Assembly (NCBI GenBank): GCA_049522015.1
Contig: JBEKOG010000018.1
Coordinates: forward strand, 17,864 to 81,863
DNA: 64,000 nucleotides
Source: Verrucomicrobiota bacterium
Lineage (GTDB): Bacteria > Verrucomicrobiota > Verrucomicrobiia > Limisphaerales > UBA11358
Direction: 5' to 3'
Under the pieces are notes generated by a model. That model had not been told where the DNA came from and searched no databases. It was given only the letters and a program-made list of their open reading frames with translations. Position numbers and translations under genes: made by a program. Position 1 is the stretch's first letter; each line of letters starts with the position of its first letter. Positions 1 to 64,000 of this stretch are shown here, in pieces.

Positions 1-1401
1 CCTCACCCCGCCCAAGCGGGGAGAGGGCTGGCTGGTCGCGCCGAAGCCGGGCGAAGGCGGAGGTGCGGGGATTTGATTTTCAAAACAATTGGTCTCCTCT
101 CCCCGGCCCTCTCCTCCTTTGGTGGAGGAGAGGGAGAATAATCGCGCCAGCGCGAACGCGGCGAGCAATGGCGCAAGAAAGGCCGTAAGTGTCACGTATT
201 TGATGGGATACGTCATCAAGCTGAGTTGCGGGATGATTTTTCGCAGGGCGGGATAAACGAAAGTATTTTCGCCGAGCGCAAAAATCAGTGCCACCATCGC
301 CACTGTGCCGAGCAGCCACACGCGCCTTTCCCGGACCGTCCAAACTGCCAGCAACGCCAGCCATAGCGCGCCGATGCCGAGATAATAAGACGACGTCCAT
401 GACTGTTCGTATTGAAAGAACACGCCTTCGGTCCAGGTGCGGCCGAAGGCCATCGGTACGAGAAAATTCGCCCAGCCCCAGCCGGGCATGGACCAGCGCG
501 TATCCGCGTATCCGGCGCTCCGCTGCGAATGGGCGGCGAGATCGAGGAACGGCAGCAGTTGCACCGCCGCCAGCGCAATCACCAGTGCCACGACCAATGG
601 AAAACGCCAGAACATGGAGACGTTGTAACGTGCTGCCGGCATCTTGCCGGCAGAACTGTCTTTGGCACATGTAAGCTCTGCCGGCGGGACGCCGGCAGCA
701 CGTTTGACTAATTGTTGAATCCACATCGCCAGCAGCAAAATCCACGTGAGAAAAATAATTTCCGGGCCGCCCGCGAGCATTTGCATGGCGCCGAGGAACG
801 CGGCAAAAATGATTTTTCGTCCGCCCTCGCGCCACGCGCCTTCGACGGCGAGCACGACCCACGGCATCCAACTGAGCGTGGCGATGTGGCTCGGCCACAT
901 GAGCAGGTTGAGCGTCAGGCCGTTGAACGCGAAGGCCACGCCCGCAAACGCCGCCGCGAAGGAGTTGCCCGCCTGCGTGGCCGTAGCTGCATTGCCAGAC
1001 AGGTGGGCCGAAACCGGCCAGGCGTTGCGTGCGTAAAAAAAAGACGACACTTCGGCGCGGTGAAGGCCCGTCCATCGTCGGGCGAGGAAAAACATGCCGA
1101 AGCCCGCGAACCACAAATGCAGCAGGCAGAAAAACCCCAGCGACCATGGCAGCGGCAACAGAAGGTAAATCAGCGAGGGCGGGTAGAGCGGCATGGTGTT
1201 CCATTGCGCGAGGAACGGCACACCGCAATTGTTGTAGGGGTCCCACAACGGCAGTTCGCCGTGCCGGAAACATTCCTGCTGAAAATGGGCGAGTGGATAC
1301 GCGAAAAATCCGTAGTCGCGGATGACGAAGGTTTCCAGGCCGGGCAGAACCTGTGGGAACGTGGCTAAAATCAGCAACGCAAGGAGGATTCCAAAGCGCA
1401 C
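1..1401 (-). CDS. YfhO-like polytopic membrane protein, partial (C-terminal end lies beyond the window start)
   Basis: Absent from the ORF track because it runs off the edge. My manual minus-strand translation in the frame with codons 1-3 ... 1399-1401 is stop-free. It reads ...RFGILLALLILATFPQVLPGLETFVIRDYGFFAYPLAHFQQECFRHGELPLWDPYNNCGVPFLAQWNTMPLYPPSLIYLLLPLPWSLGFFCLLHLWFAGFGMFFLARRW..., followed by more hydrophobic segments. I associate this N-terminal pattern with YfhO-type membrane proteins. Start uncertain (GTG 1399-1401 is one candidate). Listed ORFs 80..1273(-) and 712..1368(+) are Arg-rich out-of-frame shadows. Confidence 0.55.
   Translation of the reverse strand, partial: MRFGILLALLILATFPQVLPGLETFVIRDYGFFAYPLAHFQQECFRHGELPLWDPYNNCGVPFLAQWNTMPLYPPSLIYLLLPLPWSLGFFCLLHLWFAGFGMFFLARRWTGLHRAEVSSFFYARNAWPVSAHLSGNAATATQAGNSFAAAFAGVAFAFNGLTLNLLMWPSHIATLSWMPWVVLAVEGAWREGGRKIIFAAFLGAMQMLAGGPEIIFLTWILLLAMWIQQLVKRAAGVPPAELTCAKDSSAGKMPAARYNVSMFWRFPLVVALVIALAAVQLLPFLDLAAHSQRSAGYADTRWSMPGWGWANFLVPMAFGRTWTEGVFFQYEQSWTSSYYLGIGALWLALLAVWTVRERRVWLLGTVAMVALIFALGENTFVYPALRKIIPQLSLMTYPIKYVTLTAFLAPLLAAFALARLFSLSSTKGGEGRGEETNCFENQIPAPPPSPGFGATSQPSPRLGGVR
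629..702. repeat. GC-rich double-hairpin palindromic element lying in-frame inside the YfhO-like CDS
   Basis: CGTGCTGCCGGC (629-640) is the exact reverse complement of GCCGGCAGCACG (691-702). There are two local hairpins CTGCCGGC-N5-GCCGGCAG at 633-653 and 678-698. The element encodes ...AELTCAKDSSAGKMPAARYN... in the host frame. Confidence 0.7.
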
Positions 1402-1544
1402 AGGCGTGAAAAGTTTTTCGGCGAAGTTGTTGCTGCCGGTCGGTTGCACGCGCAGATTAAAACTGGCGGTGAGATAAAATGCAATGCGTTCTCGACAACA
1501 GAAATGGGCTGAATTAGGTTCTTTATAAGGCAAAAATAAAGTGC

Positions 1545-1967
1545 TTGAAAAAACTTTTCCCAAAATGGGTTCGATGGCCATTCTATTTCGGGTTGCTTTG
1601 CGTTGTTTTGGCGGCGTCTTTTGTTGGTTGTGGCAATCTTGAACAAAGAAAAACAGAAGCGCGGATTCGACATTATTTTGCCCTCAACCCGCGTGAGCCG
1701 CTGACAGGCTCTGTAATTGAGTCAAACTTGCTCGCACGTTTTCCAATCGGAACACCGGTGAACAAACTTCAAACATGGTTGGCCAGTCAAGGATTGGGTG
1801 TGGATGGGCATTCAAGGACCTGGCAAACAAACCAATATGTTTCTTATCAAGCTGACGATTATTCAGATGCTTGGTTCTCGATGCGCCATACCCAAGTGAC
1901 AGCTACTTTTGATAACCAGCAGAAAATCCAAAACATTCAGGCGCAGGTATACAGTTATTCCTTGTGA
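1545..1967 (+). CDS. hypothetical lipoprotein (140 aa)
   Basis: ORF track. The N-terminus MKKLFPKWVRWPFYFGLLCVVLAASFVGCG looks like a signal peptide with a lipobox-like FVGC. Divergent from the upstream membrane-protein gene. Confidence 0.45.
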   Translation: MKKLFPKWVRWPFYFGLLCVVLAASFVGCGNLEQRKTEARIRHYFALNPREPLTGSVIESNLLARFPIGTPVNKLQTWLASQGLGVDGHSRTWQTNQYVSYQADDYSDAWFSMRHTQVTATFDNQQKIQNIQAQVYSYSL

Positions 1968-2043
1968 CTTTTCCACGTTGCCGATTCCGAGTTGTCGAGT
2001 GCAATTGACGCTGACCCGCCAAGGTCTTACGCTAATCTTGTTT

Positions 2044-2922
2044 ATGAGCGAATTGCAAAATTCCCTGCTGGAATTGATCCGGCGCACCTCGGCGGAAATT
2101 CCCGACGACGTCAACCAGGCCATCCTCGCGTCGCTGGAACAGGAAAAGAAAGGCACGATTGCCGAGAGCGCGCTGAAGATCATTGACCAGAACATCCAAC
2201 TGGCCAAACGCAAGTCGCAGCCGATTTGCCAGGACACCGGCAGCATCCTGTTTTTTGTGGATTGCCCGGTCGGCTTCGACCAGATCACCTTCGAAGAAAC
2301 GGCCAAGGAAGCCGTTAAGCTGGCGACCAAGAAAGGTTTTCTCCGCCAGAACTCCGTGGATTCGCTCACCGGCGTGAACGACGGCACCAACGTCGGGCCG
2401 GGCGCGCCCGTGTTTCATTTTCACCAGCATCGCTCGCTGGAAGTGAGCGTGCGGTTGGTGCTCAAGGGTGGCGGTTGCGAAAACGTCGGCGCGCAATACT
2501 CGTTGCCAAACGAAAAGCTCCAGGCGAACCGCGACCTCGACGGCTGCCGCAAGGCGATTCTCGACGCGGTGTTGCAGGCGCAGGGCAAGGGCTGCGGCCC
2601 GGGCATCCTCGGCGTGTGCATCGGCGGCGACCGGGCGACCAGCTACGAGATGAGCAAGACGCAATTCCTTCGGCTGATCCCCGACCGCAATCCGAATCCG
2701 AAGTTGGACAAGCTGGAGCAGGACATTTTGAAGACGGCGAACGAACTCGGCATCGGCCCGATGGGTTTCGGCGGCAAGACAACGCTCTTGGGCGTGAAGA
2801 TTTGCGCTGCGAACCGTCTGCCCGCGTCGTATTTCGTCAGCATCAGCTACATGTGCTGGGCCTATCGCCGTCAAGGCGTGACACTGGATGCGCAAGGAAA
2901 GATTGGGAAGTGGTTGTATTGA
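2044..2922 (+). CDS. class I fumarate hydratase / Fe-S hydro-lyase, alpha (N-terminal-domain) subunit
   Basis: Inside ORF 1909..2922; ATG at 2044 gives MSELQNSLLELIRR.... Contains the QPICQDTGSILFFVD and GGGCENVG motifs typical of the two-subunit FumA/TtdA-type hydro-lyase alpha chain. Confidence 0.85.
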   Translation: MSELQNSLLELIRRTSAEIPDDVNQAILASLEQEKKGTIAESALKIIDQNIQLAKRKSQPICQDTGSILFFVDCPVGFDQITFEETAKEAVKLATKKGFLRQNSVDSLTGVNDGTNVGPGAPVFHFHQHRSLEVSVRLVLKGGGCENVGAQYSLPNEKLQANRDLDGCRKAILDAVLQAQGKGCGPGILGVCIGGDRATSYEMSKTQFLRLIPDRNPNPKLDKLEQDILKTANELGIGPMGFGGKTTLLGVKICAANRLPASYFVSISYMCWAYRRQGVTLDAQGKIGKWLY

Positions 2923-3000
2923 TGCAGTTGTAACCACAGATGGACATGGAATGAACAGATCAACTGGCGAGCATAACATCAAAATTGGTGTTGCAGGTTT

Positions 3001-3354
3001 ATGGAATTCAGTGTAGAGTTTTACGAGACTGTGGATGGCCGTTCGCCGGTGATGGAGTTTCTCGAAGAACTCAGGCGGAGCGATCCTCCCGATCATGCGG
3101 CAGTCCTTCGCGGGCTGGTAAAATTGCGCAACCGGCAGAATCATCGCGAGCCTCTGTCCAAGGCGCTGGGCGATGGCCTGTTTGAACTGCGCCATGTCGG
3201 CAAGTTGAACACACGCGTCCTGTGGTTCTTTGTGAGAGGCCGGCGCATCATTGCTGTCCACGGCATACGCAACAAAGGGCAGGCCGTCCCCATGCGCGAC
3301 CTCGACACCGCGCGGGAACGGATGCGCGACTGGCAGAACAGATTTGAACCATGA
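3001..3354 (+). CDS. type II toxin, RelE/ParE superfamily (HigB/Gp49-like)
   Basis: 117 aa, MEFSVEFYETVDGRSPVMEFLEEL...LFELRH...RVLWFFVRGRRIIAVHGIRNKGQAVP. This is the typical Gp49/HigB-like toxin pattern. The stop overlaps the next start (ATGA at 3351-3354). Confidence 0.75.
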   Translation: MEFSVEFYETVDGRSPVMEFLEELRRSDPPDHAAVLRGLVKLRNRQNHREPLSKALGDGLFELRHVGKLNTRVLWFFVRGRRIIAVHGIRNKGQAVPMRDLDTARERMRDWQNRFEP

Positions 3355-3710
3355 GAACCTTGAAAAAGACCAACTTTGACCTCTACCTGGAGGAACAACT
3401 CAAAGACCCCGTCTTTGCCGAGCGATTTGAAAGGGCGGGCGAAGCGTGGGACGTGGCTTTGCAGCTTGCGGCGTTGCGTGAAAAGGCCGGACTCTCCCAG
3501 CGTGACCTCGCCCGCAAGCTCAAAACCTCCCAGCAAAACATCAGCCGGCTGGAATCGCCGTCATACGAAGGACATTCCTTGAGCATGTTGCGCCGGGTTG
3601 CGGAAGCCCTCGGAGCAACCGTCCGCGTCGTTTTTGAATCCGATGCGCGCAGCGAAGCAAGTGTTTTGTCGGAATCTCCCGTTCCTTATCGTATCCGGAA
3701 GAAATCATGA
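3351..3710 (+). CDS. XRE-family HTH antitoxin (HigA-like)
   Basis: 119 aa with the HTH core LREKAGLSQRDLARKLKTSQQNISRLES. Position and 4-nt overlap with the upstream toxin gene support the call. Confidence 0.75.
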   Translation: MRTLKKTNFDLYLEEQLKDPVFAERFERAGEAWDVALQLAALREKAGLSQRDLARKLKTSQQNISRLESPSYEGHSLSMLRRVAEALGATVRVVFESDARSEASVLSESPVPYRIRKKS

Positions 3711-4057
3711 ATCTGCACCCGGCGCACAACCGAAACTGTAAAATGGTCATGCGGACGCTTGACAAGATGAGCCGCCGCCGGGCCGGGGCACTGGCCGGGA
3801 TGACGGTTCTGCTGGTGGATGATCAGGCGCGCGGTCTGGCGTGCGAATTGTTGGCTGAAAAAATACTTCCACCCGCTGCGGCATCCGATGCCATTCACGC
3901 GGCCGTGGCGTCGTTGAGCCAGGTGAATATTCTACTCACGTGGAATTGCCAGCATTTGGCCAATCCTCATTTCCTTGGGAAACTCCGCGAATTCGTGTGG
4001 CGTTACAGACTGACGCTGCCGGAGATTTGCACGCCCATCGAACTTATGGGAGGATAA
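3707..4057 (+). CDS. PIN-like (VapC-type) protein, apparently N-terminally truncated or remodelled
   Basis: The C-terminal two thirds (...DAIHAAVASLSQVNILLTWNCQHLANPHF...ICTPIELMG) match the LLTWNC-H-AN PIN-like family as I remember it. The N-terminal acidic-residue segment of that family is not recognisable. ATGA overlap with the preceding gene at 3707-3710. Confidence 0.5.
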   Translation: MNLHPAHNRNCKMVMRTLDKMSRRRAGALAGMTVLLVDDQARGLACELLAEKILPPAAASDAIHAAVASLSQVNILLTWNCQHLANPHFLGKLREFVWRYRLTLPEICTPIELMGG

Positions 4058-4061
4058 ACCT

Positions 4062-4307
4062 ATGAAAACGAATCCGATTCTGGAAGAAATCTGGCGCATC
4101 AAAGACGAATTGTCGCGCGAGTATGCCGCCGACCCGGATGCTTACTTTGCAAAGCTGGACGAGATTGCCAACGCCGAGGAAACGGCTGGGCGGAAAGTAA
4201 TCCGTTCGGCGGCGGAACTGCGCCGACTGATGGCCGCGGAGGAACGCCAGCGCGCCGAGAAGTCCGCGATGGCTCTCAACGAAAAACCGCCGCGCAAGAA
4301 GAGTTGA
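4062..4307 (+). CDS. small hypothetical protein, probable partner of the PIN-like gene
   Basis: 81 aa, MKTNPILEEIWRIKDELSREYAADPDAYFAKLDEI.... This is the pattern of small proteins I recall encoded next to this PIN-like family. Function unverified. Confidence 0.45.
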   Translation: MKTNPILEEIWRIKDELSREYAADPDAYFAKLDEIANAEETAGRKVIRSAAELRRLMAAEERQRAEKSAMALNEKPPRKKS

Positions 4308-4331
4308 TAGAGTAGTGGTGCCCAGGCAGCT

Positions 4332-5045
4332 ATGAACAAAACTCTTTCGATTTTTATCGGCATCGCCTTGTTGATTGTGGCGGCTGCCCTGGCCATTCAC
4401 CTGGCGGTTGTCCGGCCGGTTGTCCGTGTGGCGGAGAAAGCCGTGGATGCCCCGGAACGAATCGTTGAAAAGGTGTTTGATTTTGGCAAACACGGGATTG
4501 ATGCTTTCAAGGCCATTTTCCAGTCGCAGGTCAATGTAGTTTCCACGACGACCGTCTGCGACGCGACCCCCATCGCGGAACTGGCGGTGCTGCAAAGAAA
4601 TATTTGCGAGATAATCGATTATAAAAAAACCGACCTGCACAGCACCAAACGCATCATTGCCGAACAGACGTTCGTGGCCAAAATCGGGTTCGATCTTGCC
4701 GCCAGATTTTCCGCCGCCTACGACCCGTCCAACCAGGTGGTGACCATCATCCTGCCCGAACCCAAAATCCTGTCGCTGGAAACGGTCAACCCGGAGGCGA
4801 ATTACTATCTGGAGGAGGACGGTTACATCAACAGTTTAACCACCGCCGATCACCAGCGGGTTCTGATTCAACTCAAGGAGAAGGCCCGCAACAGCGCCGA
4901 CTCGACCCTGGCGGTGGGCGACGCCAAACAGATGATCGAAACCCGGTTTCGCGACCTGTTCCGGGCCTTCGACGTAAAGGTGTTCGTTTTGTTTTCTTCA
5001 AACCAGCCAAAGATAAGCGGAAAAGTGTCTGATTTAACCAAATGA
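4332..5045 (+). CDS. DUF4230-like membrane-anchored protein
   Basis: 237 aa with an N-terminal TM (LSIFIGIALLIVAAALAI). Body has ...ELAVLQRNICEIIDYKK...AKIGFDL...ILPEPKILSLE..., resembling DUF4230 family proteins (from memory). Confidence 0.55.
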   Translation: MNKTLSIFIGIALLIVAAALAIHLAVVRPVVRVAEKAVDAPERIVEKVFDFGKHGIDAFKAIFQSQVNVVSTTTVCDATPIAELAVLQRNICEIIDYKKTDLHSTKRIIAEQTFVAKIGFDLAARFSAAYDPSNQVVTIILPEPKILSLETVNPEANYYLEEDGYINSLTTADHQRVLIQLKEKARNSADSTLAVGDAKQMIETRFRDLFRAFDVKVFVLFSSNQPKISGKVSDLTK

Positions 5046-5064
5046 TTTTTGAGCCGGACATCCC

Positions 5065-5640
5065 ATGAAAAAATTAACCTTTCCATTTTCCGAACAAAAA
5101 ATCCGGGCGCTGAAAGTCGGCGACGAGGTGCTGATTTCCGGCGTCGTGTTCACCGGGCGCGACGCGGTTCACAAATACCTGCACGAGGGCGGCAAGCTGC
5201 CGCCGGGTGTGAATTTTCGTGACGGTATCCTGTATCACTGCGGTCCGGTGGTGATGAAGCAGGACGATGGCACTTGGAAAGCCACCGCCGCCGGCCCGAC
5301 GACTTCCATCCGCGAGGAGCCGTATCAGGCACATATCATCAAGGAATTTGGTCTGCGCGGCGTCATCGGCAAGGGCGGCATGGGCGACAAAACACTGGCA
5401 GCGTGCAAGGAATTCGGCTGTGTATATCTGCACGCGGTCGGCGGCGCGGCGCAAGTGCTGGCCGACTGCATCAAAAAGGTGCGCAATGTTTACCTGATGG
5501 ACAAATTCGGCGCGCCGGAGGCAATTTGGGAATTTGAAGTGCAGGATTTTCCGGCAGTGGTGACGATGGACTCGCACGGCAATTCGCTGCACAAGGAAGT
5601 CCTGGCGAAGAGCCAGGCGGAACTGGCGAAAAGAATTTAA
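5065..5640 (+). CDS. class I fumarate hydratase / Fe-S hydro-lyase, beta (C-terminal-domain) subunit
   Basis: 191 aa with GVVFTGRDAVHKYL, ILYHCGPVV, AAGPTTSIREEPY and IGKGGMG motifs of the FumA C-terminal/TtdB-type beta chain. Confidence 0.85.
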   Translation: MKKLTFPFSEQKIRALKVGDEVLISGVVFTGRDAVHKYLHEGGKLPPGVNFRDGILYHCGPVVMKQDDGTWKATAAGPTTSIREEPYQAHIIKEFGLRGVIGKGGMGDKTLAACKEFGCVYLHAVGGAAQVLADCIKKVRNVYLMDKFGAPEAIWEFEVQDFPAVVTMDSHGNSLHKEVLAKSQAELAKRI

Positions 5641-40409: not shown

Positions 40410-40563
40410 CGACGTGAGGCCCCGAGTGGCTGACAGAATTCGAGGTGAACCCGGGCGGGTCAGTAAGTTGGATAAACCGCCCTTGAGCCTGCACCGAATG
40501 GCCGGTTTGATTTCGTTTGACTTGCCAATGAGCCGAACGCGGGGTTTAATGCGCGACCGCGCT

Positions 40564-40639
<76 letters not shown>

Positions 40640-58104: not shown

Positions 58105-58156
58105 CACCATCCTACGCCCGAAACCTCCAAACGTCGGTTCCGGGCGTAGGATGGTG
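58105..58156 (-). terminator. perfect 16-bp inverted repeat abutting and overlapping the 3' end of tRNA-Ala
   Basis: CACCATCCTACGCCCG (58105-58120) pairs with CGGGCGTAGGATGGTG (58141-58156). The right arm includes the tRNA CCA end. Confidence 0.5.
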
Positions 58157-58227
58157 GAGCCGACAGGAATCGAACCTGCGACCTTCTCATTGCGAACGAG
58201 ACGCTCTGCCAACTGAGCTACGACCCC
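58152..58227 (-). tRNA. tRNA-Ala (anticodon CGC)
   Basis: Hand-folded from the reverse complement: GGGGTCG...TAGCTCAGTTGGCAGAGC...TCTCG-TTCGCAA-TGAGA...GCAGG-TTCGATT-CCTGT-CGGCTCC-A-CCA. A G3:U70 wobble pair is present, as expected for tRNA-Ala. Confidence 0.85.
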
Positions 58228-58305: not shown

Positions 58306-58377
58306 GTTTGGAGTTCCGCGTTTACGCGGTCCTTGTGGCACATGAAGTCCGCGCCGCGTAAACGCGGAACTCCAAAC
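58306..58377. repeat. perfect 24-bp inverted repeat (REP-like cruciform) upstream of cdsA
   Basis: GTTTGGAGTTCCGCGTTTACGCGG (58306-58329) and CCGCGTAAACGCGGAACTCCAAAC (58354-58377). Each arm contains its own palindrome CCGCG-N4-CGCGG. Confidence 0.8.
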
Positions 58378-59480: not shown

Positions 59481-60617
59481 ATGAAAAATGTAGTTTTACT
59501 CGGTTCGACCGGCTCCATCGGCACCAGCAGTGTCAAAGTGGCCGAGGATTTGCCGGACCGCATCCGGCTGGTCGGCCTGGCCGCCGGAAACAATGCCGAA
59601 CTGTTGCTCAAACAGGCGCGCAAACACCGGCCTGAGGCCATTTCAATCAACAACCCCGAAAAGGCCGGCGACTTGGGAAAATTCTTCGGAGCGGCGACGC
59701 AGATTTATTCGGGCGATGAAGGCTTGATCAAACTCGCCACGCTGCCGGCGGCGGACATCGTGCTCATTGCCATCGTCGGCACGGCGGGATTGAAGCCCGC
59801 ACTTGCCGCGATTCGTGCGGGCAAGGACATCGCCATCGCGTCGAAGGAAATTCTGGTGATGGCCGGCGAAATCGTGATGAGCGAGGCGCGCAAACACGGC
59901 GTTCGCGTGCTCGCCGTGGACAGCGAACATTCGGCGATTTTTCAGTGTCTTGATGGCAAGCCGTCCAGTTCCGTCCGCAAACTCTGGCTGACGGCGTCCG
60001 GCGGACCGTTTCGCACCACGCCGAAGGAGGAATTTCCCGGCATCACCGTTGAGCGTGCGCTCAAACATCCGTCGTGGGTCATGGGCAAAAAAATCACCAT
60101 TGATTCAGCGACGTTATTCAACAAGGGACTGGAAATGATTGAAGCGCGCTGGCTGTTTGACATCGGCATGGAACGTGTGGGCGTGCTGGTGCATCCGCAA
60201 AGCATCGTTCACTCATTGGTGGAATTTGTGGATGGAGCGTTGCTCGCGCAGCTTTCCACGCCGGACATGTGCCTGCCGATTCAATATGCGTTGACCTACC
60301 CCGACCGTGTGCCGAGTGAGCGGGTGCAGACCAATTTTACCAGACTCGGCAGCCTGACGTTTGAGGAACCGGATGTGGAACGTTTTCCGGCGCTGAAACT
60401 CGCGCGGCGGGCAGGGGAGGTGGGCGGCACATTGCCGGCGGTGTTGAACGCGGCGAACGAAGTGGCGGTGGCGGCGTTCTTGAACCGCAAAATCAATTTT
60501 CCGCAAATCACGGAAATCGTGCGTCGTACGATGAATGCGCACAAAGTTGTGTTGCATCCGACCCTGGAACAAATTTTGGAGGCTGACGCCTGGGCGCGGC
60601 GCGAGGCGGCGAAATAA
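59481..60617 (+). CDS. dxr: 1-deoxy-D-xylulose 5-phosphate reductoisomerase
   Basis: Inside ORF 59412..60617; ATG at 59481 gives MKNVVLLGSTGSIGTSS.... Also LAVDSEHSAIFQC, NKGLEMIEA, HPQSIVHS. Confidence 0.9.
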   Translation: MKNVVLLGSTGSIGTSSVKVAEDLPDRIRLVGLAAGNNAELLLKQARKHRPEAISINNPEKAGDLGKFFGAATQIYSGDEGLIKLATLPAADIVLIAIVGTAGLKPALAAIRAGKDIAIASKEILVMAGEIVMSEARKHGVRVLAVDSEHSAIFQCLDGKPSSSVRKLWLTASGGPFRTTPKEEFPGITVERALKHPSWVMGKKITIDSATLFNKGLEMIEARWLFDIGMERVGVLVHPQSIVHSLVEFVDGALLAQLSTPDMCLPIQYALTYPDRVPSERVQTNFTRLGSLTFEEPDVERFPALKLARRAGEVGGTLPAVLNAANEVAVAAFLNRKINFPQITEIVRRTMNAHKVVLHPTLEQILEADAWARREAAK

Positions 60618-60628
60618 ACGGCTCCTTC

Positions 60629-60676
60629 CCTCAACGATTTGAAGCTTCGGTTGTGCAGCCGATCCTGATGTTAGGC
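60629..60676 (-). repeat. short attC-like site (terminal site of the putative cassette array)
   Basis: On the minus strand: (ATGCC)GCCTAAC-ATCAGGATCGGCTGCACAACCGAAGCTTCAAATC-GTTGAGG. The inverse cores are imperfectly complementary. Starts 21 nt after the stop of the small ORF and ends 11 nt from the dxr stop. Shorter than typical attC sites. Confidence 0.3.
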
Positions 60677-60700
60677 GGCATTAACGTCGAAACCATAATC

Positions 60701-60895
60701 TCATGGTGACTGACTCTGTCGGCCTGCCATCGCATTTGTGCTAATCGTAACGCTTACTGAAGGCGCGGAGTTTTCGCCCTGAATCTGGGTGCTGTGGCGA
60801 CGAATCTTGGAGCTCTGAATGGGTGGGAGCAGTAAGCCTGCTGCCAACACCAAACCGATGAAGGCTCCGAGAATGAACATATGTTTGCGACTCAT
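60701..60895 (-). CDS. small membrane protein (64 aa), putative cassette ORF
   Basis: Inside ORF 60701..60937; ATG at 60895 gives MSRKHMFILGAFIGLVLAAGLLLPP (one TM). Preceded on its strand by GTTAGCCGGCAT (60948-60937). Confidence 0.4.
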   Translation of the reverse strand: MSRKHMFILGAFIGLVLAAGLLLPPIQSSKIRRHSTQIQGENSAPSVSVTISTNAMAGRQSQSP

Positions 60896-61097
60896 ATGAT
60901 TCCTTTGACAGTGCGGTCCATAAATACTCACACGCAATGCCGGCTAACGACTACTCAAGAGGGCGTCTATATTGCATGACGACTTTTCTATATTGCCGTC
61001 GCCGGGTCAAGCCTGCGGGAACACAAAAAAACCATCAACCCCGTAAAGGGGCGTGGCCCCCACGGGGCTTTACGCTCCTCAACCCTCAACCGCACAA

Positions 61098-61253
61098 ATG
61101 AACACACCGCATCCCTATGACCTGGTCATCGGCCTGGATCGCTCCGACAAAAAGGCCGACCTGCACCTCATCACCACCGCCACCGGCCAGCGCCGGTCCC
61201 AAACCATTGACACCACTCCCGAAGCACTCTGGGACTGGCTGCGGCCCGACTGA
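61098..61253 (+). pseudogene. IS110-family transposase, N-terminal ~50-aa fragment
   Basis: MNTPHPYDLVIGLDRSDKKADLHLITTATGQRRSQTIDTTPEALWDWL resembles the N-terminus of IS110/IS1111-type DEDD transposases. The ORF stops at 61253 where attC-like sequence begins. Confidence 0.45.
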
Positions 61254-61292
61254 GTCCGAATAGGTGTTTAGCCGGATGCCCAGCGTCCGAGC

Positions 61293-61439
61293 TGCCAACT
61301 GAAATTAAGTCGGCCTGCCCGCCGTAGCCTTGGGCGAAGGCGGGAGTTCCACTTCTGAGGTCGCGAAAACGGAAAGAAAAATCTTTCCGCAAGGGAATGC
61401 TTTTTTCTATTGACCGTCCGGGCTTAATAGGTGTTAGGC
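61293..61439 (-). repeat. attC-like imperfect palindrome (site D)
   Basis: On the minus strand: GCCTAAC-ACCTATTAAG ... CTTAATTTCA-GTTGGCA (147 bp), with a central CCCGCC/GGCGGG stem. The stop codon of the Zn-ribbon ORF lies inside it. Confidence 0.4.
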
Positions 61440-61858
61440 GGCATTTGGTCATCCTTCAAACCCAACTCCTGTGCTGAATGCTTTTCCTTCAGTATCTCCC
61501 AGAACTCTTGGATCTCTTTGACTGAGTAGCCTACTTGTGAAAACACAGATTCGTTCCGATTTGGCCAGGAGTGGAGCCAATCCAGCAGAGGCCAAACTTG
61601 GAAACCGCTGGCGATGCCCTCTTTGAAGTAACATATCACGGCCTCACGGGTCGCCCGAAAATTACCGCGAGCCTTTCGCAATTGACGCAGCGTCTGGGCA
61701 AGAAACTCAATCGGGACGTCTGTCGTTCCGGCCAGTTTGTCTGCCATCTCTGGCGAAAGGAACAACAACGTGGCGGGTAGCTCAGCGCCGCAGAACGCAC
61801 AAACGTAATTTCTACGGTCGTAGATGATGCCGTTACATTTTGGGCAACGATAGCTCAT
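61424..61858 (-). CDS. hypothetical protein with N-terminal zinc-ribbon (144 aa), putative cassette ORF
   Basis: MSYRCPKCNGIIYDRRNYVCAFCGAEL contains CxxC...CxxC. The ORF fills the space between perfect 12-bp inverted repeats GTTAGGCGGCAT (61433-61444) and ATGCCGCCTAAC (61867-61878). Confidence 0.55.
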   Translation of the reverse strand: MSYRCPKCNGIIYDRRNYVCAFCGAELPATLLFLSPEMADKLAGTTDVPIEFLAQTLRQLRKARGNFRATREAVICYFKEGIASGFQVWPLLDWLHSWPNRNESVFSQVGYSVKEIQEFWEILKEKHSAQELGLKDDQMPPNTY

Positions 61859-61871
61859 AGGGCTAGATGCC

Positions 61872-61967
61872 GCCTAACGAGAGAACTGAGCGATGCGGGC
61901 GGCCCAGCGCGTCCGCATTGGCCACCAGCGTGGCCCGCCCGCCTTCGATCCAGTGATTTTGTTCGGC
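61872..61967 (-). repeat. attC-like imperfect palindrome (site A, 96 bp)
   Basis: Plus strand: GCCTAACGAGAGAACTGAGCGATGCGGGCGGCC...GGCCCGCCCGCCTTCGATCCAGTGATTTTGTTCGGC. The two halves are imperfect reverse complements along most of their length. Inverse cores are GCCTAAC / GTTCGGC. Confidence 0.5.
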
Positions 61968-62008
61968 TCGCGTGTCATACAGATCCCAATTCCGCCGTGC
62001 ACTTGGGT

Positions 62009-63139
62009 TCAAGGTTGGTCACTGATCTTCAGATACAACTGCTCGCGGCCGTAGTAGCCGCTGTTGTAGAAAAGGGCGGCGCGACCATCGGGCAAGAGGT
62101 GAATGAACTGTCGCCATAGGTTGTAGCCCTCGCCAGCGTCGAGCGCGGCCTTCGGGATGTCTTTAACCCATTCAATCGGCTCCGGCGCGAAATGCCATCC
62201 CTGCACCGGCCATTCCTCATCGCACCACGCAAAGCCGCCCAGGCTCGGCGGCGGCTCTTCGGTCCAGACGGCTTTCTGGCCAGGATCCGGCGCGGTGGGC
62301 GACGCGTTGACCACTGCCACCCATTTGTGTTGACGACCGCGCAGGAGTTGGAGGCCGCCAACCCAACCCGAAGCCCAGTGCCCCACCTGCTGGCAAGGCT
62401 CGAGGACCACGCCTCGTTTGGTTGCGACTGTCTCGCCCAGCTTTTGTGTCGCGACCGCCTGTGCCGAGCCAAACGGGCTGATCTTCCGCTGTTGCGCTTT
62501 GCGCGGATAGCCCATGTAGAAATACAGAAACTCCTTGCGTTCCGGAAAATAGTAGCCGGTGACCGCATCTGTGTGCTTGGCGTCGAATTCGTCCTCCGCG
62601 CCAGGCGGAATAATCGGTTGAGGCTCGAACGTCCACGGGCCGGCGAGCTTTTTCGCCCACGCGCGCTGGACTTGTTTGTGCCCGTCCTTAAAGCTTACCA
62701 CGAGCAGCCAATAGCGCCCGTCAACCTTCGCGGCCTGATTCGGATGGTCTGGGTCCATCACGATGAAGGGCTTGTGGAATCCGCCCACCGCCTCCGGGTT
62801 GGTCACCGGCAGGGGACCTTCTAACTTCCATTGTCCCGGTCCGAGATTCTCGCGATTCGTGCAGATGGCCTGGGCGTGTCCCCAAGGATCGCAGAACAGT
62901 ACCATTCGCCAGCCTTGGATCGCTTCATCCCAGACAATGCACGGGTCGCCGCTCACGCCCTGGTCGCTACGCTGCCGTTGCAGCACCACGCCCCGCCGAG
63001 TCCACGAACTCGGGATCGCGAAGCCGCCGCGCAGTTTCGAGTTGGCCGCGGGTTTTGGGGAAACCTCCTGCGCGTGGGCCGCGCTCGTCACGACGCTGGC
63101 CCCGCAAAGAAGGGGAAGGATCAACAACAGTGGTCTCAT
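62009..63139 (-). CDS. secreted hypothetical protein (376 aa), possibly glycoside-hydrolase-like beta-propeller
   Basis: Inside ORF 62009..63535; ATG at 63139 gives MRPLLLILPLLCGASVVTSAAHAQ (signal). The upstream part of the listed ORF runs through the 150-bp repeat. Fold guess is weak. Confidence 0.55.
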   Translation of the reverse strand: MRPLLLILPLLCGASVVTSAAHAQEVSPKPAANSKLRGGFAIPSSWTRRGVVLQRQRSDQGVSGDPCIVWDEAIQGWRMVLFCDPWGHAQAICTNRENLGPGQWKLEGPLPVTNPEAVGGFHKPFIVMDPDHPNQAAKVDGRYWLLVVSFKDGHKQVQRAWAKKLAGPWTFEPQPIIPPGAEDEFDAKHTDAVTGYYFPERKEFLYFYMGYPRKAQQRKISPFGSAQAVATQKLGETVATKRGVVLEPCQQVGHWASGWVGGLQLLRGRQHKWVAVVNASPTAPDPGQKAVWTEEPPPSLGGFAWCDEEWPVQGWHFAPEPIEWVKDIPKAALDAGEGYNLWRQFIHLLPDGRAALFYNSGYYGREQLYLKISDQP

Positions 63140-63160
63140 ATGCTCATGGTCCAGGCTTGT

Positions 63161-63310
63161 GCCGAACGTCCAGAGTTCAGGCACGCGGGGCTGATGACGT
63201 CCTCCGCGAAAGCGGAACCCCGAAGGCTTTCGGGGCTGGCCGGCTGTACGCCATCCCGTTGCCTGCTCGCGATGCTGTTTATCGGAGTTGCCTGCAGCGA
63301 TTTGTTCGGC
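63161..63310 (-). repeat. 150-bp attC-like repeat, copy B
   Basis: Starts GCCGAAC and ends GTTCGGC. Central hairpin CCCCGAAGGCTTTCGGGG. About 94 percent identical to 63625-63774, with similarity ending exactly at both cores. Confidence 0.5.
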
Positions 63311-63365
63311 GTTTTCATTTGCTGCCACGATTGAAACTCTGGCCGCGAAATGGTAGCATGATCTC

Positions 63366-63596
63366 ATGGAATACGACAAAGACAAAGTCGACGAGATGGT
63401 GCTCGCACTTCTCTTCCTGACAATCCATGACAACGGACGTGCATGGAAAGGACACGACTGGGATGCGATGAACCGGCTGCACAACAAGGGAATGATCCTC
63501 GATCCGGTGGGCAAGGCCAAATCGGTCGTGCTCACCGAACAAGGTGAGAAACGGTGCGAGGAACTCTTCCGTAAACATTTTTGTTCTTCCCTCTGA
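63366..63596 (+). CDS. DUF6429-like small protein (76 aa)
   Basis: MEYDKDKVDEMVLALLFLTIHDNGRAWKGHDWDAMNRLHNKGMILDPVGKAKSVVLTEQGEKRCEELF matches the DUF6429 pattern as I recall it. Confidence 0.55.
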   Translation: MEYDKDKVDEMVLALLFLTIHDNGRAWKGHDWDAMNRLHNKGMILDPVGKAKSVVLTEQGEKRCEELFRKHFCSSL

Positions 63597-63624
63597 AGGC
63601 CGAAACCTCGGACGGCCCCCTCAC

Positions 63625-63774
63625 GCCGAACGTCCAGAGCTCAGGCACGCGGGACCGATGACGTAGTCCGCGAAAGCGGAACCCCGAAGGCTTTCGGGGC
63701 TGGACGGCTGTACGCCATCCCGCCGCCTGCTCGCGATGCTGTTTATCGGAGTTGCCTGCAGCGATTTGTTCGGC
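63625..63774 (-). repeat. 150-bp attC-like repeat, copy C
   Basis: See copy B. Begins 14 nt downstream (minus strand) of the stop of the partial transporter gene. Confidence 0.5.
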
Positions 63775-63790
63775 CAACGGATTGTCATGG

Positions 63791-64000
63791 CTACTTGTGC
63801 TGTAATTGGGAAACCGCCTGTGGTGTCGCTCCGCCGGTTGGCTTCGCCTGCCCACTGGTACTAATCAGTGCCGCACCAATCATGCTTAGTATCACTCCTG
63901 CCCAGCGAAGTGAAGAAACGTGCTCGTGTAGAAAAATAGCCCCAGCGACCGTAGCGACCACAAAACCGAGGCCCGTAAGAGGCCATAGAAAGCTGATGTC
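63791..64000 (-). CDS. DMT/SMR-superfamily (EamA/ArnE-like) small transporter, partial (N-terminus beyond window end)
   Basis: Manual minus-strand translation from 64000: DISFLWPLTGLGFVVATVAGAIFLHEHVSSLRWAGVILSMIGAALISTSGQAKPTGG...HK, stop at 63791-63793. Not in the ORF track because it runs off the edge. Confidence 0.5.
   Translation of the reverse strand, partial: DISFLWPLTGLGFVVATVAGAIFLHEHVSSLRWAGVILSMIGAALISTSGQAKPTGGATPQAVSQLQHK

Follow-up and report, generated by a model that had tools for sequence, protein, structure and literature searches.

We analysed a stretch of 64,000 nucleotides (nt) on contig JBEKOG010000018.1 of an uncultured Verrucomicrobiota genome (peat/soil metagenomes, assembly GCA_049522015.1), hereafter called the window, and in particular the short genes and imperfect palindromes that adjoin dxr (gene end at 60617) and continue to the window end. 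The segment from 61.3 to 64.0 kb is very likely the distal part of an integron-type gene-cassette array, of which a decayed tail reaches back to 60.63 kb. A preliminary description made from the sequence alone had proposed such an array, its cassettes being read on the minus strand and recombining at G/TT, and this reading is now supported by five lines of evidence: the geometry of the attC sites, the linkage of their family to integron integrases, the chain of complementary R boxes, the cassettes shared with other genomes, and a close relative free of the array. No integron integrase (IntI), attI site or cassette promoter (Pc) adjoins the array in the window, in the 5.3 kb beyond it or in 10 kb of a second contig, L123, and we therefore assign it to the attC-site clusters that have no integron-integrase (CALIN), a class defined by two or more attC sites in a span of 4 kb, with no intI closer than 10 kb (PMC4889954). 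At least three confident attC sites lie in the window and at least eight on the locus L001, which extends 5.3 kb beyond 64000 (subtracting 53365 from a window coordinate gives the L001 coordinate); they stand 0.3-1.3 kb apart except at an insertion sequence (IS), and no IntI was found within ~10-15 kb upstream or 60 kb downstream. Proteins of this population are deposited as MGA3143247.1 and MGA3143251.1.

Anatomy of the attC sites

Published attC sites are 57-141 bp long, carry AAC in the bottom-strand R' and fold into an R/L-box hairpin with spacers of 5-6 nt; opposite the AAC stand extrahelical bases at position 16 (usually G) and 23/24 (a conserved T), with a 6-bp stem between them (PMC5027507). 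The sites of the window belong to a family whose modal form, 99 nt long, is GCCTAAC GTCCAGA GCT CAGGCA CGCGGGA ... TCCCGCG T TGCCTG C AGC GATTT GTTAGGC. Counted from the 3' end of the plus strand, the R box occupies positions 1-7 and the spacer 8-12, followed by 3 bp, an unpaired C at position 16, 6 bp and an unpaired T at position 23. The unpaired bases thus stand on the arm opposite the AAC, with the positions and the spacing given for attC (PMC5027507), and of the two unpaired spacers, one arm carries GTCCAGA (7 nt) and the opposite arm GATTT (5 nt). Across 53 family sites the AAC and the GTT are invariant (consensus GCCTAAC...GTTAGGC), 96% of the cells in the R, L and inner stems are paired, and seven pairs show compensatory changes; the pairing and covariation measures exceed those of 500/500 shuffles and of all slid controls.

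A covariance model built only from these 53 sites, all from other genomes, was run on the window with filters off. It returned three sites: c2 at 63625..63774 (150 nt, E = 2e-5), C at 61872..61967 (96 nt, E = 2e-5) and c1 at 63161..63310 (150 nt, E = 5e-5), and nothing else in the 64 kb below E = 0.04. All three are read with the minus strand as top strand. Site c2, whose recombining bottom strand is the plus strand, has the layout GCCGAAC, GTCCAGA, L box, TGCCTG[C]AGC GATTT GTTCGGC; the palindromic repeats of c1 (GCCGAAC...GTTCGGC) and c2 are 95% identical, and in site C (GCCTAAC...GTTCGGC) the R box, the L box and the bulge are all aligned to the model. Folding of the bottom strands, a check proposed in the preliminary description, yielded the R and L boxes with unpaired bases at 16 and 23. 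Compared with shuffles, the single-strand folds (best strand) gave z = -3.6 at 63625, -2.9 at 61872, -2.2 to -2.4 at 61292 (site D, discussed below) and -2.1 at 63161. Lengths vary around the family mode of 99 nt (82/142 sites), one L001 site reaching 192 nt, and the extra length consists of insertions in the tip; c1 and c2 carry a 31-nt internal duplication. The GCCGAAC of these two sites also deviates from RYYYAAC by a G at the fourth base. A search of the window with Rfam (Rfam 15, gathering and permissive thresholds) returned two tRNAs and chance matches only, and Rfam contains no attC family.

The strand convention was checked on the aadA1 attC of plasmid R100, where the top strand is the aadA1 strand, opposite to intI1, and where the extra base lies on the 5' arm of the top strand at the same distance from R''. 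By this check the plus strand of the window is the bottom strand and the minus strand the top strand, in agreement with the orientation of the open reading frames (ORFs) and with the intI geometry in relatives. The aadA1 attC (In2, R100) and the sites described here have in common, on the top strand, a 7-nt R'', a 5-nt spacer, three paired bases and the extra base, together with the G/TT crossover and a stop codon at or in R''. They differ in size, the aadA1 attC being 60 nt long with a tiny tip whereas the present sites measure 96-192 nt and have branched tips, and they show no sequence similarity beyond the AAC/GTT cores. A family with C as its first extrahelical base bears on how strictly IntI reads that base.

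Crossover signature

If recombination takes place at AA|C, the 5' bases of a site should complement the 3' tail of its left neighbour and not its own tail. Along the window and L001, the left 3' tails and the 5' starts that follow them read, in order, AGGC and GCCT, three times CGGC and GCCG, again AGGC and GCCT, then AGCC and GGCT, GAAC and GTTC, and AGAC and GTCT. The outer 4 nt of the R box thus match the adjacent tail perfectly in 8/8 cases, and six of these sites mismatch their own tail. Site C illustrates the rule, its 3' tail CGGC matching the GCCG of c1 and its own 5' GCCT matching the AGGC of site D. In other arrays, perfect matches make up 53/70 adjacent pairs, and 22/70 when the pairs are read in the wrong direction; among the informative pairs the figures are 27/36 and 3/36. 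These statistics leave out L125, whose 12 sites were missed by the half-site nhmmer search and found by the covariance model.

Complementarity runs 3-4 nt past the 7-mer in the predicted direction only, which explains the 12/12 match between ATGCCGCCTAAC and GTTAGGCGGCAT at the zinc-ribbon cassette. At the end next to dxr, the start of the small-membrane-protein cassette, GTTAGCCGGCATT, agrees with AATGCCGCCTAAC at 60670-60682 in 12/13 positions. The cores, spacings and complementarities listed in the preliminary description are all present in the sequence, and its circular-cassette test holds and could be widened to the eight perfect 4-mers given above. The gaps between ORFs and sites also proved right: 16 nt from stop codon to site for the EamA gene and 41 nt for the secreted-protein gene, with 19 nt (secreted-protein gene) and 13 nt (zinc-ribbon gene) between a site and the next ATG.

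The attC family, its integrases and its cassettes in other genomes

A 19-nt motif from the conserved left arm was scanned in a collection of species-representative genomes, in which ~35 matches were expected by chance. More than 117 stretches were found, and nearly all of those with AAC in front belong to metagenome-assembled genomes (MAGs) of Verrucomicrobiia/Limisphaerales from soil or peat; matches in other phyla mostly had no AAC (among the matches listed). Eight of the loci, each 8 kb long and again among the matches listed, encode a tyrosine recombinase with the integron-specific insertion KYP...W.W.W(V/L)FP...RRHH. Seven of these recombinases were scored on TIGR02249 (cutoff 265 bits), and five pass, with 457, 428, 419, 274 and 266 bits. 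The L086 protein stays under the cutoff at 261 bits, a value assumed to hold also for L074, which has a near-identical copy; the recombinase outside the seven, from L052, was recognised by the insertion motif only. At 8/8 integrase loci the layout is the classical divergent one: the sites are found upstream of where intI starts, and their modelled bottom strand coincides with the coding strand of intI. Two adjacent blocks of one MAG contig (L009 and L051) hold at least 14 sites, followed by intI. Of 83 spacers between sites of the family, whose median length is 447 nt, 66 have their longest ORF on the top strand.

Single cassettes recur elsewhere in other contexts, as a comparison of cassette content suggested by the preliminary description brought out. 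Locus L006 contains the EamA cassette (97% amino acid identity) and the secreted-protein cassette (85%), and exactly lacks the 464-nt DUF6429 cassette, so that one attC stands where the window has two; a different cassette then follows the secreted-protein gene, and the neighbour order of EamA also differs. The DUF6429 cassette is found in L044 and L055 at 92-94% nucleotide identity with unrelated neighbours, and the lectin cassette from beyond the window recurs in L058, likewise among unrelated neighbours. Invariance of the region in relatives, which the preliminary description would have counted against its reading, was not observed: in a relative with 91.5% identity in the dxr DNA, the gene order is cdsA, dxr, a small ORF, rseP and ispG, no array is present, and homology to the window stops at the dxr end.

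Two observations on this family stand apart. Contigs binned as Acidobacteriota, Pirellulales, Acidiferrales, 'Klebsiella' and Bifidobacteriaceae (L006, L026, L027, L064/L073, L071/L113, L099) carry family sites, and L006 has whole cassettes in common with the window; these are either mis-binned repeat-rich contigs or a sign of cassette spread across phyla. L125 has 12 family sites within 5 kb (1-5100), a dense array typical of a sedentary integron, and one of its cassettes encodes a 42% identical homologue of the 116-amino-acid (aa) membrane protein found beyond the window.

The array beyond the window and the missing integrase

The preliminary description had noted that no integrase was in view, and indeed the 64-kb window contains no tyrosine recombinase; it had also placed intI and attI, if present, beyond 64000. 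Extension of the contig gave a mixed result. The array goes on for ~5 kb on L001, where the same repeat follows minus-strand genes for EamA, a C-type lectin, a DJ-1/PfpI protein and a 116-aa membrane protein, and an attC is still present at the contig end (15430-15525). The sole recombinase there is not an IntI. This 304-aa protein, encoded on the plus strand (L001 12636-13550), was considered as the missing integrase and rejected: it scores 138.9 bits on TIGR02249, against the cutoff of 265, its match falls into two stretches that skip the IntI-specific domain, a segment of roughly 20-40 aa between patches II and III (profile positions 175-255 unmatched), and an IS91-family transposase (354 bits) is encoded 12 nt downstream. 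The metagenome contig L123 carries the last cassette, with the 116-aa protein, at 100% identity and differs downstream of that gene. Its 10 kb upstream hold genes for a PIN toxin, a Rep-like protein, a BspA-type leucine-rich-repeat protein and HsdM.

Several points weigh against an integron-type array. There is no tyrosine recombinase in the window, no IntI in the 5.3 kb of L001 beyond it and no tyrosine recombinase in the 10 kb upstream on L123, a stretch linked to this genome by ~690 shared nt; neither attI nor Pc was identified at the array. The sites themselves are atypical in that position 16 is C, and not the usual G, in >90% of the family, and in that c1 and c2, at 150 nt, slightly exceed the published range and align poorly to the family model because of their internal duplication. 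Toward dxr, site D (61292..61439) is not matched by the family covariance model, site A (60629..60676) yields neither a significant hairpin (z = -0.2 to -0.5) nor a model match, and the GGCTAAC at 60942-60948 is an orphan half-site without a partner, abutting an IS110 remnant. The loss of the DUF6429 cassette in L006, finally, is also explicable by homologous recombination between the 95% identical repeats.

The strongest competing explanation is a complete chromosomal integron whose intI, attI and Pc lie further beyond the window or are cut off only by the insertion of the IS91-family element. The array does pass 64000 and still shows an attC where L001 ends, assemblies break at its far end, and related genomes possess complete integrons with the same attC family. 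The nature of the only recombinase in the next 5.3 kb and the lack of one in the 10 kb upstream on L123 nevertheless make this explanation unlikely, and we retain the CALIN assignment.

We regard as very unlikely that the palindromes are generic repeats of the repetitive extragenic palindrome (REP), bacterial interspersed mosaic element (BIME) or miniature inverted-repeat transposable element (MITE) kind, or transcription terminators, that merely resemble attC cores. The sites are indeed GC-rich hairpins that closely follow stop codons, related MAGs have single copies on large contigs, and a 41-nt hairpin and a 183-nt unit, described below, behave like small mobile repeats. However, a blastn-short search of the 64-kb window found no further copies of c1, c2 or the other sites, so that the remaining 60 kb hold none, and integron-type integrases accompany the family in a fixed geometry at all eight loci. 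A REP, MITE or terminator model does not predict the directional chaining of R boxes, nor do such repeats account for the unpaired bases at positions 16 and 23, for cassettes that genomes have in common as units, or for sites that cluster on one strand with one ORF per spacer.

In the cassette array itself, each unit consists of one short gene, usually on the minus strand, and then an attC site, the plus strand of which is the attC bottom strand. Folded as single-stranded DNA, this strand has the R box, a spacer left unpaired, an L box in which the bases at positions 16 and 23 stay free, and a tip that varies. By the mechanism we propose, an integron integrase like those that relatives encode next to identical sites would cut between A and C of the 5'-AAC-3' on the plus strand, and strand exchange with another attC or with attI would then excise the cassette as a circle or insert it. 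The crossover signature and the linkage to IntI in relatives lend indirect support to recombination of the folded single strand by such an enzyme, whereas present-day recombination of the array and the mode of expression of its cassettes are inferred. The CALIN is a cassette store that an integrase encoded elsewhere could mobilise. Insertion sequences have invaded it, with an IS110 remnant inside the window and an IS91-family element just outside it.

Comparison with known integrons

Like the CALINs already described (PMC4889954), the present array has cassettes mostly of unknown function, contains no resistance genes and has IS inside or beside it, and related genomes hold complete integrons with the same attC type. 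We see no essential difference, apart from the location next to dxr, where a relative has rseP-ispG, and the Verrucomicrobiota host. As in the Vibrio cholerae superintegron with its V. cholerae repeats (VCR), the family is lineage-wide and homogeneous (99-nt mode, ~90% column identity), with long arrays (in one MAG, at least 14 sites precede intI), nearby toxin-antitoxin genes and mostly co-oriented ORFs. Unlike the superintegron, the array of the window has no intI, and its sites differ from the V. cholerae type by the C at position 16 (>90%) in place of G and by a bottom-strand 5' spacer of 7 nt, not 5-6.

The preliminary description knew of no characterised chromosomal integron in this lineage. 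Surveys already report integrons in Verrucomicrobia/Verrucomicrobiota, with CALINs being common (PMC4889954, PMC8618304), and integrons were counted in bulk in permafrost-peat MAGs (PMC13323075); the lineage is therefore not new for integrons. What is added here, for a phylum whose integrons have so far only been bulk-counted, is a documented array of cassettes from uncultured soil/peat Verrucomicrobiota, with an attC family of its own. It provides a lineage-specific attC model and a clear natural demonstration of the G/TT crossover signature. The array leaves the understanding of integrons unchanged, and the IS91-family elements at attC sites are the more useful lead.

An IS91-family element at attC sites

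An IS91-family element of ~2.5 kb occupies L001 12530-15062, from ~1.9 kb past the window end, and encodes the tyrosine recombinase described above upstream of its transposase. Further copies were found in L022 (680-3260), L055 (7213 onward), L008 (2935-5284), L129 (2334-4672), L130 and L131. In three Verrucomicrobiia arrays (L001, L022 and L055) the element is joined to an attC at TTGTT|GAAC. It ends with ...GTTCAAC in L001, L022 and L008, the last showing the GTTGAAC and GTTCAAC ends only. The GTTCAAC at the right end in L001 opens a strong hairpin ending ...GTT|AGAC; a clear pseudo-attC hairpin of this sort is present at the right end in L001 and in three plasmid copies, and at the right end in L022 (GTTCAAC...GTTAGGC) the fold is not significant.

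Protein-level relatives of the same recombinase-transposase pair, in the same architecture, are carried by annotated plasmids. An Escherichia coli IncC plasmid has the element within a class 1 integron, where it interrupts the aadA1 attC at GTT|AGAC; a Salinivibrio replicon has it in a cassette array, preceded by a VCR-like site. In both, the left junction beside the attC is again TTGTT|GAAC. On a Photobacterium plasmid the element lies next to a group II intron and has this same left junction, preceded by a sequence that may be an attC. By megablast the E. coli element has no further plasmid copies, that one record being the only hit. The module was also considered as a plain gene cassette, and this was rejected: the E. 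coli copy splits the aadA1 attC and brings its own terminal hairpin, and is therefore an inserted element that mimics a cassette. Because the ends of the element recreate a perfect GTTCAAC/GTTGAAC R box, it is flanked as a cassette is.

That the adjacent recombinase, which is not an IntI and travels with an IS91-family transposase, builds the array and has these sites as its targets seems to us the least credible of the explanations considered. In its favour, the two families that the enzyme matches best, each below threshold, are XerA ('site-specific tyrosine recombinase/integron integrase') and TIGR02249, and in several genomes the junction of the element with attC falls on one and the same nucleotide. 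Against it, the module is missing from most arrays of the family, which carry recombinases with the integron-specific insertion, and the arrays already appear to be distributed independently of the recombinase. A similar module is present on an E. coli plasmid within a class 1 integron, the cassettes of which IntI1 is known to recombine, and the module is always an inserted passenger with its own ends.

We give about even weight to the proposal that these modules form a widespread IS91-family subgroup parasitising integrons. Such elements would insert at the TTGTT| end of attC bottom strands, with GAAC-GAAGCCGC...GCGGC as the left end and, as the right end, a pseudo-attC made of GTTCAAC, a hairpin and ...TTTGTT. 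Once inserted and bounded by a perfect R box, the element might be moved by the integron integrase like a gene cassette, and the insertion would leave the host cassette with a swapped attC. For an IS91-family element at attC we found one passing mention in the literature, that of ISShvi3 (PMC9229058), and no systematic description. IS91-family elements with a tyrosine recombinase are placed at one fixed attC nucleotide in bacteria that differ widely, a clinical class 1 integron being among the cases.

Cassette genes of the window

The 3' part of a gene for an EamA-family transporter (63791..64000, minus strand; Pfam EamA, E = 1e-4) closes the window, with c2 as its attC; the gene is complete on L001 (10426-10869), where it encodes 143-147 aa. 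The DUF6429 gene (63366..63596; Pfam PF20008, E = 4e-34) is on the plus strand, that is, inverted within its cassette, which by the AA|C rule spans 63167-63630 (464 nt) and has c1 as its attC. Contigs of several peat/soil metagenomes encode the same DUF6429 protein, identical at every residue. Next comes a minus-strand gene (62009..63141) for a secreted protein of 376 aa with a signal peptide and a weak GH43-like match, in a cassette at 61878-63166 whose attC is site C. The zinc-ribbon protein of 144 aa (61424..61858, minus strand) was assigned to Zn_Ribbon_TF below the Pfam threshold, and its cassette spans 61298-61877. The Pfam assignment is thus strong for DUF6429 and weak for EamA, the zinc ribbon and the GH43-like match. 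The ORF nearest to dxr (60701..60895, minus strand), a putative last cassette, encodes a small membrane protein of 64 aa that belongs to no Pfam family.

The degenerate left end

The preliminary description had the array start right after dxr. Its sites from ~61.3 kb onward are borne out, site D with less certainty, and the two leftmost ones proved to be degenerate or disrupted by an IS. The terminal one, site A (minus strand, 48 nt, CCTCAAC...GTTAGGC), adjoins the dxr stop codon; only its GTTAGGCGGCATT end is attC-like, and it has a 14-nt exact repeat with 61432-61445. The orphan GGCTAAC mentioned above is followed by the IS110-family remnant (60949..61253, plus strand), which comprises a left non-coding end and ~50 N-terminal transposase codons. 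Compared with a full-length IS110-type gene of 453 aa in L008, these codons show 73% amino acid identity, and 288 nt are homologous. The full-length copy (L008 1283-2700) abuts CTCTAAC and splits an attC of the same family in its spacer.

Elements that invade attC sites include the IS1111-attC group of the IS110 family and the group IIC-attC introns. Both are mentioned in the literature (PMC9229058). As in the IS1111-attC group, the IS110-type elements described here, the remnant in the window and the full-length one of L008, directly adjoin the AAC of an attC R box, and these junctions suggest an attC-targeting IS of the IS1111-attC kind, a group of which they are candidate members. The IS91-family element beyond the window, joined to attC sites at TTGTT|, is a further parallel to such invading elements.

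A 41-nt GC-rich hairpin (CCCCGTAAAGGGGCGTGGCCCCCACGGGGCTTTACG) at window 61037-61077 is found in the left end of the IS110 remnant. Several attC sites have this hairpin, at 85-95% identity, within their variable tips, with copies at L001 11601-11640 and in L052, L004, L118 (two), L055, L036, L101 and L110.

Site D (minus strand) has the layout TGCCAAC TGAAA TTAAGTCGG ... CCGGGCTTAA TAGGT GTTAGGC, with attC-like ends and an L box whose unpaired G is on the correct arm. The stop codon of the zinc-ribbon gene is inside the site, which is probably the attC of the zinc-ribbon cassette. It lies within a conserved non-coding module of 183-482 nt (61238-61445 in the window), which always ends at GTTAGGC, after which the flanks diverge. 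The module contains an internal direct repeat (AATAGGTGTTTAGCC and AATAGGTGTTAGGC) and no ORF. It recurs in at least eight other arrays, including inside the complete integron of L086 (3050-3515), with copies also in L040 (2714-3195), L090, L103, L005, L053 and L010. The 482-nt version is 99.6% identical in two contexts with different flanks, and the module appears, from such comparisons of sequence, to be mobile. Two other identities were tried for it and rejected: as the right end of the IS110 remnant it has no homologue adjoining the full-length IS in L008, and as a group II intron or other known RNA it has no Rfam match.

Other features of the window

In L136, from a relative that shares blocks of 82-93% DNA identity with the window, the window blocks at 14.0-18.3 kb and 55.6-60.6 kb nearly adjoin each other. 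Between them the window has ~37 kb of extra DNA (18.3-55.6 kb), of which only a tRNA region (40521-40639) is common to both, and this extra DNA may be a single genomic island or two. At 58306-58377, beside a tRNA gene (58155-58227), a near-perfect palindrome (GTTTGGAGTTCCGCGTTTACGCGG ... CCGCGTAAACGCGGAACTCCAAAC) gives a weak match to the attC model on both strands and is unrelated to the attC family.

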